Sequence record: NC_049438.1
Strand: one strand, 5' to 3'
Length of the DNA stretch: 64,000 nt
Source of the DNA: Acinetobacter phage vB_ApiM_fHyAci03
The notes beneath the pieces were generated by a model. It made no database searches and was not told the DNA's origin. It saw only the letters and a program-made list of their open reading frames with translations. Below are positions 10,280 to 14,346 of the stretch, piece after piece (position 1 is the stretch's first letter; each line of letters begins with the position of its first letter). Made by a program: the position numbers and the translations under genes.

Positions 10280-10354
10280 TGGCAGGCCGTCTTCGATTTG
10301 AACGAAGATTAACGGAGTTGGAGTCCGTCGTGGTACCAATTACACTAACGACCT
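10280..10354 (-). tRNA. tRNA-Trp (anticodon CCA), CCA end encoded
   Basis: Manual cloverleaf: acceptor aggtcgt/acggcct (one G-U), D-loop with GG, anticodon stem acgga/tccgt, loop ctCCAac, T-arm cttcg-ttcaaat-cgaag, discriminator G, CCA; the plus-strand ORF 10216..10452 overlaps it and is spurious. Confidence 0.8.
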
Positions 10355-10443
10355 GTGGCGGAAAGCAATGTAGTCGAAACATAACCGAATTAACGGTCCA
10401 CTCGCTTAGCAGGCGGTGCCAATCACCTTATTGGTTTACTTTC

Positions 10444-10719
10444 CTACATTAAACATAATGATGTGACAAGCCATTGATTTTGGCGTCGCATATTATCAGT
10501 GAGGCGGCGAGAACGTTCTTCATCTTCTTTGCGACGTTTTTCCCGCTCAGCCTCTTGTCTTGCAATTCTTTTACGTGTCTCTTCTTCAATTGATCGTTCA
10601 CTATGGCCGCTATATCGTGGAAATCCAGTGCTATACGAAGGTGAATCAAAACCTGTTCCATTACGCATTGCCATTTCATTCATGCGTCTTGAGAAATCAA
10701 CATATTGAGAAACGCTCAT
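10444..10719 (-). CDS. Arg/Glu-rich small basic protein (91 aa) embedded between tRNA genes
   Basis: ORF track; strong RBS GGAGGAAAT before the ATG; RKRIARQEAEREKRRKEDEERSRR charged tract. Confidence 0.45.
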   Translation of the reverse strand: MSVSQYVDFSRRMNEMAMRNGTGFDSPSYSTGFPRYSGHSERSIEEETRKRIARQEAEREKRRKEDEERSRRLTDNMRRQNQWLVTSLCLM

Positions 10720-10736
10720 ATTTCCTCCAAGGAATA

Positions 10737-10812
10737 TGGTGGAGTGTGATGGAATTGCACCATCCTAATCCTGCTCTTCAGGCAAGCGCTAATCTATCTC
10801 AGCTAACACTCC
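10737..10812 (-). tRNA. tRNA-Phe (anticodon GAA), CCA encoded
   Basis: Acceptor ggagtgt/acactcc, D-arm gctgagatagattagc, anticodon loop ctGAAga, T-arm gatgg-tgcaatt-ccatc, ACCA. Confidence 0.8.
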
Positions 10813-10821
10813 AAAAGTAAA

Positions 10822-10898
10822 TGGTCTCCGTAAAATGATTTGAACATTTGACCCTTCGCTCCCAAAGCGAATGCTCTACCAGGCTGAGCTATACGGAG
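10822..10898 (-). tRNA. tRNA-Pro (anticodon UGG), CCA encoded
   Basis: Acceptor ctccgta/tacggag, D-arm gctc-agcctggta-gagc, anticodon stem ttcgc/gcgaa, loop ttTGGga, T-arm aaatg-ttcaaat-cattt. Confidence 0.8.
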
Positions 10899-10903
10899 TT
10901 AAA

Positions 10904-10994
10904 TGGCGGAAGGTGAGAGGATCGAACTCTCAAGGCTTTTACACTCGACTGTTTTCAAGACAGTTCCCATCGCCGGCCGTTGGGTTGACCTTCC
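10904..10994 (-). tRNA. tRNA-Ser (anticodon UGA), type II with long variable arm, CCA encoded
   Basis: 91 nt; acceptor ggaaggt/accttcc, anticodon stem actgt/acagt, loop ctTGAaa, variable stem-loop, T-arm with ttcgatc. Confidence 0.75.
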
Positions 10995-11097
10995 AGTATT
11001 TCAACGTCGCACTTAAGGTAGCGTATCACCCTTTTAAACATTGACGACCTAAGAACGTTTACACCGACAAGGCGACTTAGGGCCCTTTACGTCAATT

Positions 11098-11176
11098 TGG
11101 CTCCCCATCTGGGTAACGATCCCAGCTAACCACGGATTAACAGTCCGGCCCATGCACCATGCTCGGGTTCTGAGGA
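11098..11176 (-). ncRNA. tRNA-like element (79 nt) with anticodon-arm GUU (Asn-like) and CCA end but non-canonical T-loop and 6/7 acceptor pairing
   Basis: Acceptor tcctcag/atgggga, D-stem cccg/tggg with 11-nt loop, anticodon stem cgga/tccg, loop ctGTTaa, T-arm ctggg-atcgtta-cccag, GCCA; coordinates +-2. Confidence 0.35.
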
Positions 11177-11183
11177 ATAAAGT

Positions 11184-11268
11184 TGGAACCGCAAGGAGGA
11201 ATCGAACCTCTCACTTCCTTCCCACTTTTTAAGTATCTGCTTAGAAGGCAGATGTGGGGACATGCGGC
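11184..11268 (-). ncRNA. tRNA-like element (about 85 nt) with canonical T-arm and CCA but no clear D-arm
   Basis: T-arm agagg-ttcgatt-cctcc, 3' ttgcggt-t-cca, 5' gccgcat pairs 6/7; internal hairpin tctgc-cttctaa-gcaga (UCU-like loop); could be a type II tRNA or a stable tRNA-like RNA. Confidence 0.3.
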
Positions 11269-11282
11269 TTAAATTCTTAAAG

Positions 11283-11353
11283 TTCTGGCACGAGGAATCG
11301 AACCTCGGTGACTGGAGTACAAAACCAGCATAATACCACTATATGATGCCAGA
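11283..11353 (-). tRNA. tRNA-Thr (anticodon UGU), CCA not encoded
   Basis: Acceptor tctggca/tgccaga perfect, D-arm atat-agtggta-ttat, anticodon stem ctggt/tccag (one U-U), loop ttTGTac, T-arm cgagg-ttcgatt-cctcg, discriminator A then ctt (no CCA); alternative reading as Gln(UUG) is less consistent. Confidence 0.6.
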
Positions 11354-11666: not shown

Positions 11667-12233
11667 TCAGTCGATAACGATTGTAGGATTTGTTTCAGTT
11701 AAAATTGCATCGAATTCAAGATCGAAGAAATCAATTGTAGATTTGAGCTCATCAATTTGTTCTTGAATTTCCATAATTGTAGGTTTTTCTCGTTTTTCCA
11801 TTAATTGCTTGAGCTCATCATCATGTGCGGCTTTAGACAATTTAACTTCATAATCACGTTCGATGTTAGCAAATGTAGCACGAGCACTAGCTAGCTCTTT
11901 AACTAAACGTGTATACAAAGCTTTAAGTCGAGGTAAAATATGTGTACGATACGTTAATGCATCGTTGATAGACATTTGTTCTTTGCCTACGGTTACCATC
12001 GTTTCAAAATTTGCTTTATTGACCTTTTTGCGAAGATCGAATTCTGCATCAAGTTTGTCTTTAATCGATTGAATGTTTTTGCGAGATTTGTCAACAAATT
12101 CAGCAGTTTTGATTCCAGTGCTAATCTCTACACCATTACGGAATACACCACAGAATGTCATTTCACGAAGATTTTCGTCGAAAGACACTTTGTTGCGTTT
12201 AAGTGTTACTAATGCACGAGCGATGGTAGTCAT
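11667..12233 (-). CDS. hypothetical coiled-coil protein (188 aa)
   Basis: ORF track; heptad-rich middle region. Confidence 0.45.
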   Translation of the reverse strand: MTTIARALVTLKRNKVSFDENLREMTFCGVFRNGVEISTGIKTAEFVDKSRKNIQSIKDKLDAEFDLRKKVNKANFETMVTVGKEQMSINDALTYRTHILPRLKALYTRLVKELASARATFANIERDYEVKLSKAAHDDELKQLMEKREKPTIMEIQEQIDELKSTIDFFDLEFDAILTETNPTIVID

Positions 12234-12309: not shown

Positions 12310-12546
12310 TTACGAATAAGTTTGTGTTGGTTCATAAAATAAACGTTCTTTCAACATTCTATCGAGCTTTGCAATTGCGGCAGATCGATTAAGGTACTGT
12401 GAACGTTTATTTGCACTTTCAGCAATTAAACCAGTCGGTAAATGAGTAACACGTACTGCATTAAAGGGGCGATTGACCCATCGACGTGCACCACTTGTTC
12501 TATACTCATCAATTCTCAATTCACTGGGTTTGAATGAATAATCCAT
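12310..12546 (-). CDS. class I release factor / ArfB-like GGQ-domain homolog with GGQ motif replaced (78 aa)
   Basis: ELRIDEYRTSGARRWVNRPFNAVRVTHLPTGLIAESANKRSQYLNRSAAIAKL aligns with RF1 [53 protein letters not shown]; the GGQ position reads ARRW. Confidence 0.65.
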   Translation of the reverse strand: MDYSFKPSELRIDEYRTSGARRWVNRPFNAVRVTHLPTGLIAESANKRSQYLNRSAAIAKLDRMLKERLFYEPTQTYS

Positions 12547-12559
12547 ATCAATATTCTCA

Positions 12560-12802
12560 TTACTTCAATTTAATTTTGGCTTCAAATACGTAGCGATAAT
12601 TGTTATCACATAATATTTCAGCTCGTTCATATGTTGTGGCCATTCGCAATACTGCTCCAGTATATGAAACGATTGCAAAAACACAATCAGTTGAATCCGG
12701 TGATGCGATATCACCAACTTTAAAACGAAGTTTTCTATAAGTATATTTATCATCATACTTACATAAGAATTTGGCTAAACTTAACGAGAATGTGAATCTC
12801 AT
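12560..12802 (-). CDS. hypothetical protein (80 aa)
   Basis: ORF track. Confidence 0.4.
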   Translation of the reverse strand: MRFTFSLSLAKFLCKYDDKYTYRKLRFKVGDIASPDSTDCVFAIVSYTGAVLRMATTYERAEILCDNNYRYVFEAKIKLK

Positions 12803-12907: not shown

Positions 12908-12985
12908 TGGTACATGACCTCGGACTCGAACCGAGAGGCTCTTGTTTCTAAGACAAGAAGGTATACCAATTCCCGTCAGTCATGC
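12908..12985 (-). tRNA. tRNA with anticodon UAG (Leu, reads CUN) but short variable arm; CCA encoded
   Basis: Acceptor gcatgac/gtcatgt (G1-U72), anticodon stem cttgt/acaag (extendable to 7 bp), loop ctTAGaa, variable agcct, T-arm ctcgg-ttcgagt-ccgag, discriminator A (Leu identity), CCA. Confidence 0.55.
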
Positions 12986-12986
12986 A

Positions 12987-13062
12987 TGGTGGATACTGGG
13001 AGTGCTCGCACCTCCAATCAACTACGTTGTCCGCTGCTTTACTATTTAAGCTAACAGTACCC
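12987..13062 (-). ncRNA. tRNA-like element (76 nt): perfect 7-bp acceptor stem plus ACCA but no recognisable anticodon arm or T-loop
   Basis: 5' gggtact / 3' agtatcc-a-cca, D-like stem gctt/aagc; internal region gcgagca instead of TTCRA; 1 nt from tRNA-Leu. Confidence 0.3.
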
Positions 13063-13064
13063 AA

Positions 13065-13140
13065 TGGAGACGTCGACTGGACTTGAACCAGCATCGTCAC
13101 GGATTTGCAATCCGTCGTATAACCATTCTACCACAACGTC
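13065..13140 (-). tRNA. tRNA-Cys (anticodon GCA), CCA encoded
   Basis: Acceptor gacgttg/cgacgtc (one U-G), anticodon stem acgga/tccgt, loop ttGCAaa, T-arm gctgg-ttcaagt-ccagt, discriminator U73 (Cys identity), CCA. Confidence 0.8.
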
Positions 13141-13147
13141 TTAAACT

Positions 13148-13222
13148 TGGTGGGCCCAGGGAATTTCGAAATCCCAACCTTCAGATTATGAGTCTGCTGC
13201 TCTACCATTGAGCTACACGAGT
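13148..13222 (-). ncRNA. tRNA-like with canonical D-arm, anticodon arm (CAU: Met/Ile2-like) and T-arm but a non-complementary acceptor stem; possible pseudo-tRNA
   Basis: ta-gctc-aatggta-gagc-a, gcaga-ctCATaa-tctga, gggat-ttcgaaa-ttccc, then tgggccc-a-cca which does not pair with 5' actcgtg. Confidence 0.4.
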
Positions 13223-13890: not shown

Positions 13891-14346
13891 TTATGCAGTC
13901 CACTCTAAATCAAGATCTTGTACATATTCACTTGCAGCAATAATCGGGTTGCTAATGAAATCTGCCTTTGGTAACTCACGTTGTCCAATATCATATGATA
14001 ATGTAACATGTGGTTGATAGTCAGGAAAATCATAAGTTGCACCTAATGCCATTGCATATTTAAAGCGCTCATGAAGATAATCTGAATCAATGAGTATAAC
14101 AAGAGCTCGTTCACCTGTTTTAGTGTCAAAAACCTTTAACTTACCGGTGACACCAATTTGTTCGCCTATCAACTGTGGCTGATAAGGAATTTTCACCCGA
14201 GAATATGCAATTGTGCAATGCAATTTGTCTCGCGGGACAGGCTTGTAGAGATCCAATGATTTTTGGATCTCTTGTAACAAGTCTAATGTTTCATCAGCGA
14301 AATTGATTGCGGCATAAGTACCTTTGCCAACTTCACTTAGTTTCAT
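13891..14346 (-). CDS. 57B: 2H phosphoesterase (LigT-like) family protein; positional equivalent of T4 57B
   Basis: Two H-x-T/S-x motifs (HCTIAYS, HVTLSY); 151 aa (T4 57B is 152 aa) directly downstream of 57A. Confidence 0.55.
   Translation of the reverse strand: MKLSEVGKGTYAAINFADETLDLLQEIQKSLDLYKPVPRDKLHCTIAYSRVKIPYQPQLIGEQIGVTGKLKVFDTKTGERALVILIDSDYLHERFKYAMALGATYDFPDYQPHVTLSYDIGQRELPKADFISNPIIAASEYVQDLDLEWTA

Follow-up and report, generated by a model that had tools for sequence, protein, structure and literature searches.

A stand-alone release-factor domain 3 without GGQ in T4-like Acinetobacter phages and its possible non-catalytic role

Few protein modules in biology are as conserved as the catalytic domains of peptide chain release factors (RFs), whose GGQ motif is treated as universal. 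Catalysis depends on a glycine-dependent backbone conformation of this loop and on the position of its glutamine. Here, we describe a 78-residue protein that retains such a domain and has exchanged GGQ for another loop. Its gene is found on the complementary strand at 12310-12546 of a 64,000-nucleotide stretch from Acinetobacter phage vB_ApiM_fHyAci03 (NC_049438.1), a stretch that was analysed as a whole and is called the window hereafter. The open reading frame (ORF) starts with ATG, has its stop codon at 12310-12312 and encodes the protein MDYSFKPSELRIDEYRTSGARRWVNRPFNAVRVTHLPTGLIAESANKRSQYLNRSAAIAKLDRMLKERLFYEPTQTYS. The window comes from a T4-like phage of Acinetobacter baumannii (Straboviridae, Twarogvirinae, Lazarusvirus), and the 3 kb surrounding the gene are 96.6-98.6% identical to phages KARL-1, DLP3, Lazarus and about 35 further isolates. 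Based on the evidence presented below, the gene very probably encodes a functional, selectively maintained and non-catalytic RF domain 3, cleanly excised from an RF1/RF2-type factor, in which G-G-Q-H has given way to a three-residue loop ending in tryptophan.

Known release-factor domains and their phage relative

Bacterial-type RF domains have been surveyed in RF1, RF2, ArfB, PrfH, ICT1, C12orf65 and MRPS35, and phages are not mentioned in that survey (PMC6514570). To reach the peptidyl-transferase centre (PTC) of the ribosome, domain 3 of RF1 and RF2 relies on the codon-recognition domain, on the switch loop and on H69, which steer it there (PMC6742477). ArfB (YaeJ) and ICT1 are, like the phage protein, small proteins organized around the RF catalytic domain and devoid of stop-codon recognition. 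However, ArfB retains GGQ and neither binds ribosomes nor is active without its linker and basic C-terminal tail (PMC3950681), both of which are absent from the phage protein. PrfH (RF-H) is an RF paralogue used in biological conflicts and displays a moderate similarity in sequence and fold (38 bits; structure 9mor_A was matched); it differs in having kept GGQ, in possessing a second domain and in being encoded together with RtcB, whereas the phage protein has a single domain. The annotation of the orthologous 12 kb in phage Lazarus includes no RtcB gene, and the neighbours in the window are small ORFs and tRNA genes. Inactive RF paralogues have precedents. MRPS35 contains a bacterial-type RF domain that has lost the glutamine and kept its RNA-binding core, and Dom34/Pelota and baeRF-1 have likewise lost the catalytic glutamine with the core kept; for these proteins, a non-catalytic role on the ribosome was proposed or shown (PMC6514570). 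In contrast to the phage protein, MRPS35, a derivative of ICT1, bears helical domains on its flanks (PMC6514570), while Dom34 and baeRF-1 adopt an RNase H-like fold of the unrelated archaeo-eukaryotic type. None of the three is phage-encoded or reported with a conserved tryptophan loop.

The sequence places the phage protein in the RF-1 domain superfamily, as a stand-alone RF domain 3 without GGQ. It matches the Pfam profile RF-1 (PF00472) with an E value of 6.9e-12 and 45.8 bits, above the gathering cut-off of 35. Residues 4-67 align with profile positions 6-71 of 116; this part covers the structural domain 3 but not the strands leading back to the codon-recognition domain. A match was also obtained with PHROG 20323, named 'RF-1 domain peptide chain release factor' (E 3.3e-20), and the best phmmer matches among PDB sequences were Escherichia coli RF2 (E 3e-13) and RF1 (about 1e-11). 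The alignment to RF2, LRID(E/V)YRTSGA-RRWVNR...AVR(V/I)TH(L/I)PTG...RSQ(Y/H)xN(R/K), contains a single one-residue gap, which is located in the GGQ loop. The identity to RF1/RF2 domain 3 amounts to 40-46% over about 65 residues, with nearly identical flanks before (LRID.YRTSGA) and after the loop (VN, VR[VI]THxPTG and RSQxxN[KR]). An earlier sequence-only reading of the window had proposed a stand-alone homologue of the RF catalytic domain, with GGQ replaced by RRW and one residue deleted, and these profile and alignment data agree with it on both counts. The same reading had aligned the protein with class I RFs and ArfB alike, and only the first half of this relationship stands. Indeed, the NCBIfam profiles prfA and prfB were matched with E values of about 1e-13, whereas the ArfB profile gave an E value of 0.004 confined to residues 40-70. 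Together with the missing tail, this difference led us to reject a specific kinship with ArfB. All NCBIfam scores remain under their respective cut-offs (50 bits versus 423 for prfA, 48 versus 370 for prfB, 38.2 versus 166.65 for prfH and 16.8 versus 100 for ArfB), those for the prfA and prfB equivalogs by far.

The predicted structure is in line with this assignment. The AlphaFold2 model, computed from a 34-sequence alignment, has a pLDDT of 80 and displays strands at residues 10-15, 30-35 and 40-44 followed by a helix at 50-71. A Foldseek search of this model against PDB retrieved domain 3 of ribosome-bound RF2 and RF1 (TMq 0.72-0.78, probability 1.00). Unlike ArfB and ICT1, which carry the alpha-i insertion, the model is predicted to have no helix between its strands. 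Domains 1, 2 and 4 of RF1/RF2 are lacking, and with them stop-codon reading, the switch loop and the RF3 contact. No PF03462 match was found in the Pfam scan, in which RF-1 was the sole match at E<=1 and no similarity to Pth1 or Pth2 appeared. The protein, with a net charge of about +6, ends 7 residues past the domain helix (...EPTQTYS).

Loss of GGQ and conservation of the replacing loop

Where release factors have SGAGGQHVN, the phage protein reads SGARRWVN and is one residue shorter. The three residues R21-R22-W23 (codons CGT CGA TGG, complementary strand, 12478-12486) stand for the four residues G-G-Q-H, the tryptophan taking the slot of the histidine that follows GGQ. The surrounding core is kept. 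This applies to V31-R-V-T-H35 (complementary strand, 12442-12456), the most conserved core strand of the RF-1 domain, with columns that are nearly invariant in the family alignments. It also applies to R48-S-Q-Y-L-N53 (complementary strand, 12388-12405), the RSQxxN motif at the N-terminus of the long helix that corresponds to RF helix alpha7; among GGQ-less relatives, R48 and S49 are invariant and N53 is nearly so. A frameshift hiding an intact GGQ, which had been named as one way to refute the sequence-only reading, is ruled out as is a sequencing artefact, since neither of the two alternative reading frames at the RRW site encodes GGQ and the protein is 100% identical across 24 independently deposited phage records.

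The substitution pattern indicates that the gene is under purifying selection within Lazarusvirus. The window gene differs from that of phage Lazarus at 9 of 237 nucleotides, all nine changes being synonymous and at third codon positions. Among eight Lazarusvirus genes, 16 of the 18 variable sites are synonymous (P ~3e-9 in a crude binomial test in which ~22% of random single-base changes are expected to be synonymous), the replacements being S18G and E72A/V. Intact orthologues of 64-79 residues are present in Hadassahvirus (AbTZA1), Zedzedvirus (ZZ1), Acajnonavirus (Acj9), Ac42 and the AB1I1 group, and none of the five Acinetobacter T4-like orthologues examined (AbTZA1, AB1I1T, ZZ1, Ac42 and Acj9) has GGQ. 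A 76-residue protein of phage 133 was also retrieved in the fold search as a further candidate. Besides, the gene is the most divergent of its syntenic block, with 53% identity to AbTZA1 compared with 73-85% for four neighbouring ORFs, 77% for a 188-codon ORF and 60% for the 57B/Acb1 gene. As judged from these comparisons, a tight constraint within the genus is coupled to a rapid change between genera, which would be compatible with a protein engaged in an arms race. A non-functional remnant of a captured host RF gene could also be short, deprived of its catalytic motif and quickly diverging between genera. However, the synonymous bias, the intact ORFs with conserved core motifs and replacement loop in all five genus-level lineages examined, and a start codon only 13 nucleotides past the stop codon of the upstream ORF make such a remnant extremely improbable. 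A decaying pseudogene is ruled out by the synonymous bias and the intact orthologues, and the remnant explanation is effectively refuted already.

Could the protein still hydrolyse peptidyl-tRNA through an alternative catalytic loop? The RF-1 core is kept and the loop is conserved rather than random, which speaks in favour of this reading. However, both glycines and the glutamine are gone and the loop is shortened, which makes a hydrolase activity very unlikely from the sequence. Even the conversion of GGQ to GAQ inactivates RF1 and RF2 (as cited in PMC6742477). The protein also has no device for its recruitment to the ribosome and no similarity to Pth1 or Pth2, and we regard an alternative hydrolase as very improbable. 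The loss of hydrolysis advanced in the sequence-only reading is thus a sound inference. It follows that the functional names borne by this already catalogued gene family are probably wrong for the GGQ-less gene. PHROG 20323 and the GenBank entries of Acinetobacter T4-like phages ('RF-1 domain peptide chain release factor', 'putative peptidyl-tRNA hydrolase' and 'release factor 1/2') represent the same family, known as annotation labels only, which take no account of the missing GGQ. Full-text literature searches turned up no work on GGQ-less RF domains of phages, in agreement with the earlier remark that such a function is not known from the T4 family.

The loop itself varies between orthologues. 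Acinetobacter orthologues display GARRW, GASNW, KHSNW, QQSNW, GASQW, PTSSW, SQGHY, KQTTW or KPT--C, and the triplets ending in tryptophan among relatives comprise SNW, SAW, SQW, SSW and GHW. When 34 distinct GGQ-less RF-domain sequences were counted with no pre-selection for tryptophan, this residue occupied position -8 from VR[VI]TH exactly in 17 of them, and tyrosine or phenylalanine in five further ones; the same slot is filled by histidine in 238 of 253 canonical sequences. In this tryptophan-bearing half, which comes from Acinetobacter, Pseudomonas and marine phages, the loop follows the pattern S/R-x-W. The loop length is 15 residues in all 15 measurable tryptophan-type sequences versus 16 in canonical ones. 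Such a fixed length and a conserved aromatic residue suggest a constrained loop that would have been re-purposed instead of having degenerated.

The same S-x-W loop is also present in unrelated phages. In Pseudomonas Septimatrevirus, it is found in TehO (164 residues, GASAW) and LPPA15 (121 residues, GSAW), both with an extra C-terminal domain. This basic and aromatic extension (TehO, L009 14-508; LPPA15, L010 2998-3363) shares a GYWRVS...KAHxFxRRLN motif and could be a second binding module missing from the Acinetobacter versions. The loop was also found in a marine lambdoid contig, between a lambda-P-like gene and NinG (P0196, ESAW), in the replication module of an 80-kb phage contig (P0028) and in the longer, multi-domain proteins P0189, P0088 and P0131. 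Some stand-alone phage RF domains retain GGQ. A likely history is that domain 3 was captured repeatedly and then lost catalysis, with one successful lineage bearing the tryptophan loop. Regarding the searches behind this survey, a word-index search with the single sequence returned only 2 matches and an exhaustive search of the representative library returned 5 proteins at E<=1e-10, the remaining matches being mostly fragments of canonical RFs. Such fragments also dominated a profile search with the tryptophan family. GGQ-less members were chosen by motif scripts. One apparent match of 861 residues (P0045, E 2e-12, eight matched stretches) was discarded as a low-complexity repeat (SSQPITISNTG...) that is not an RF relative; it illustrates the repeat artefacts to which short queries are prone in the representative library.

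Candidate binding partners

Most plausibly, the protein would serve during infection by binding, without catalysis, to one of three partners, namely the ribosome, tRNA or a protein that recognises RFs. As a tentative preference, we propose that the protein would work by binding, without hydrolysis, to the A-site/PTC region of the large subunit or to the 3' end of the P-site tRNA. The conserved tryptophan would replace the catalytic loop as an anchoring or stacking residue, and the protein, as an accessory factor, may modulate the host translation apparatus or shield it. One option is that it would keep release, rescue or toxin factors out during a defence response targeting translation. The ribosome or tRNA as a target and a role in counter-defence are both speculative. 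The proposal stems from the RNA-facing core (VRVTH.PTG and RSQxxN[RK]), which is kept, and from the charge of about +6. In release factors, the tip of the loop lies against A2602 and the CCA end of the P-site tRNA. The kept core, the charge and an aromatic residue at this tip would be compatible with a tighter, non-catalytic grip on RNA. Precedents are offered by the catalytically dead domains of baeRF-1, Dom34 and MRPS35, which were proposed to be non-catalytic A-site binders (PMC6514570), and by full-length RFs with an inactivated GGQ, which remain locked on the ribosome (PMC6742477).

A link between GGQ-less genes and counter-defence genes is suggested by their neighbourhoods. On a metagenomic phage contig, a 129-residue protein made of two tandem GGQ-less RF domains (P0191, L021 8001-8390) is encoded directly after a gene for an HD_4 hydrolase of the RelA/SpoT type, with NADAR, a Phd-type antitoxin and an Acb2/Tad1-family gene nearby (L021 6271-11427), in what looks like an anti-defence island. 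This arrangement occurs on many contigs, the protein being indexed in 51 blocks of the collection. In the same vein, another GGQ-less mini-protein (P0025) is encoded directly after an Acb2/Tad1-family gene, and in the window the Acb1-family gene 57B is found 1.35 kb upstream of the RF-like gene.

Several observations weigh against the proposed binding to the ribosome. A codon-recognition domain and a switch loop are missing from the phage protein, which ends in a non-basic stretch (...KERLFYEPTQTYS) instead of a basic C-terminal tail. As ribosome binding by ArfB requires the C-terminal tail, its isolated GGQ domain (delta101-140) fails to bind ribosomes and is entirely recovered in the soluble fraction (PMC3950681). 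For these reasons, a docking into the A site and PTC, as expected in the sequence-only reading, is not supported, the delivery elements of RF1/RF2 (PMC6742477) and the tail of ArfB (PMC3950681) being both absent. In addition, the two lysines of RF2 helix alpha7 that are near the tRNA acceptor arm, Lys282 and Lys289 (PMC6742477), correspond to Leu52 and Ala59 in the phage protein, as deduced from a residue count on the RF2 alignment. The other half of the GGQ-less sequences has no tryptophan and carries shorter and variable loops, which implies that this residue is inessential for the role of the broader group. A general plug of the PTC would hit the translation of the phage as well, so that a specificity for a ribosome state or a partner would have to be assumed. 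Concerning counter-defence, the anti-defence neighbourhood relies on three loci without statistical control, and no PADLOC match was obtained for the protein at E<=0.1, PADLOC being a set of defence models and not of anti-defence models. Moreover, accessory genes cluster in phages anyway.

The behaviour of the isolated ArfB GGQ domain rather favours a non-ribosomal partner. As a mimic of RF domain 3, the protein could titrate or inhibit an RF-recognising protein, such as PrmC or a component of a defence or toxin system, and leave the ribosome untouched. An isolated and clean copy of domain 3, with its surface core kept and the catalytic loop alone changed, would suit such a decoy, as would its accessory or anti-defence neighbourhoods and its fast evolution between genera, which is reminiscent of decoys and inhibitors. 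The RF1-PrmC complex (2b3t), which is among the fold matches, displays domain 3 as a surface for protein recognition. However, PrmC, the GGQ methyltransferase, reads the GGQ loop itself, which is precisely the replaced part. No candidate partner is conserved beside the gene across families, none of the PADLOC systems targets release factors and, to our knowledge, no known defence system does so. On balance, a protein decoy appears rather unlikely.

Position of the gene among tRNA and accessory genes

Two groups of tRNA genes surround the gene, all on the same strand as itself. The upstream pair (12908-13140) includes tRNA-Leu(UAG) at 12908-12985 and tRNA-Cys(GCA) at 13065-13140, and the downstream cluster (10280-11353) encodes tRNAs for Thr, Ser, Pro and Trp, as detected by ARAGORN and Rfam. 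An extra tRNA of this cluster at 10740-10812 on the complementary strand (Rfam, 49 bits) is absent from the ARAGORN calls, and a weak tRNA-like Rfam match below threshold (31.7 bits) with a long variable arm, at 11187-11269 on the same strand, is possibly a degenerate tRNA. Further upstream lie the T4-type genes 57B, 57A, 1, 3 and 2, which identify the classical tRNA/accessory region of T4. The location between two tRNA clusters, as pointed out in the sequence-only reading, is correct for the window and is a matter of T4-type synteny, not a general trait of the wider family. Indeed, all Acinetobacter T4-like orthologues are found in the tRNA/accessory region, without always having the same adjacent genes, and a tRNA cluster as the defining context was rejected for the wider family, whose members also occur in lambdoid nin-type and replication modules.

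This position might reflect a factor directed at tRNA, which would belong to the tRNA module of the phage and bind the acceptor or CCA end of free phage or host tRNAs to protect them, chaperone them or assist in their maturation. In favour of such a factor, RF domain 3 adjoins the CCA end of the P-site tRNA (PMC6742477), the genes of all Acinetobacter T4-like phages examined are situated within the tRNA region and share the strand of its tRNAs, and the distant tandem relative P0191 directly follows an HD_4 hydrolase gene. Enzymes of the HD_4 kind can reverse the modification of tRNA CCA ends by toxins. On the other side, we know of no RF domain that binds free tRNA, and no tRNA gene is annotated or called alongside the tryptophan-loop relatives of Pseudomonas siphoviruses, the marine lambdoid contig and the 80-kb contig. 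Since the tRNA region of T4 is a general hotspot of accessory genes, position alone is weak evidence, and we judge a factor for free tRNAs to be quite unlikely. The tentative preference stays with binding at the A-site/PTC region or the 3' end of the P-site tRNA.

Another feature of these loci is a tRNA with a CUA anticodon ('Pyl'/'Sup', amber-suppressor-like), which is found 0.6-4 kb from the GGQ-less gene in 5 of 8 related loci (L001 2094-2168, L004 2062-2133, L005 5216-5290, L006 3169-3241 and L008 4222-4294). The proximity of a suppressor-like tRNA to a dead RF domain is suggestive. In the window, only the 3' two-thirds of a tRNA with a CAT anticodon are detected at 13159-13216 on the complementary strand (Rfam, 39 bits, model positions 7-64), the 5' acceptor strand being missing. 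Relatives have at this spot the CUA tRNA followed by tRNA-Met(CAT) (e.g. L005 5216-5374), and it appears that a deletion removed the CUA tRNA and truncated the adjoining one in the window phage. An obligatory link with this tRNA was rejected, as it is absent from the window, ZZ1, Ac42 and L007 stretches and the gene is retained where it is absent (window, ZZ1 and Ac42).

The immediate neighbours of the gene provide context only, any functional link to it being putative. Upstream, an 80-codon ORF of unknown function (PHROG 29342; complementary strand, 12560-12802) is syntenic in AbTZA1, AB1I1T, L006 and Acj9; as only 13 nucleotides separate its stop codon from the start codon of the RF-like gene, both are probably co-transcribed. 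Downstream, a 188-codon ORF (complementary strand, 11667-12233) keeps this syntenic position next to the gene in most Acinetobacter T4-like phages. Its RefSeq/PHROG label 'tail fiber protein' (PHROG 1491) is probably a misannotation; the ORF belongs to the early/tRNA region, displays only weak Pfam matches of the coiled-coil type and has distant relatives in Salmonella 7-11-like phages. Neither of these two neighbours gave an informative Pfam or PDB match. Finally, the 57B homologue is situated 1.35 kb upstream of the RF-like gene (complementary strand, 13891-14346), and its orthologues carry the Pfam domain Acb1 (PF23474). Relatives of 57B are annotated 'RNA ligase' or '2',3'-cyclic phosphodiesterase', the family being that of the Acb1 anti-CBASS nuclease.

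To conclude, a phage lineage keeps an RF domain under strong purifying selection after having swapped GGQ-His for another conserved loop, and the occurrence of the same tryptophan loop in unrelated phage groups suggests a re-purposed function of the fold. As an immediate consequence, the database names of dozens of A. baumannii phages that are candidates for therapy are probably functionally wrong at this gene. A more far-reaching and doubtful view is that the GGQ-less proteins with a tryptophan loop could form an unrecognised phage class of catalytically dead plugs of the PTC or CCA end, made early in infection, which would protect ribosome-bound peptidyl-tRNA or the PTC against rescue factors or effectors of host defence, or would selectively silence termination or rescue in the host. 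If true, the RF catalytic domain would have been converted into an inhibitor or a shield and spread over groups as unrelated as T4-like Acinetobacter phages, Pseudomonas siphoviruses and marine lambdoid phages. Should the protein act through non-catalytic binding as we propose, it would represent a new type of phage tool to manipulate or protect translation, and it would also provide a compact natural probe of the PTC.

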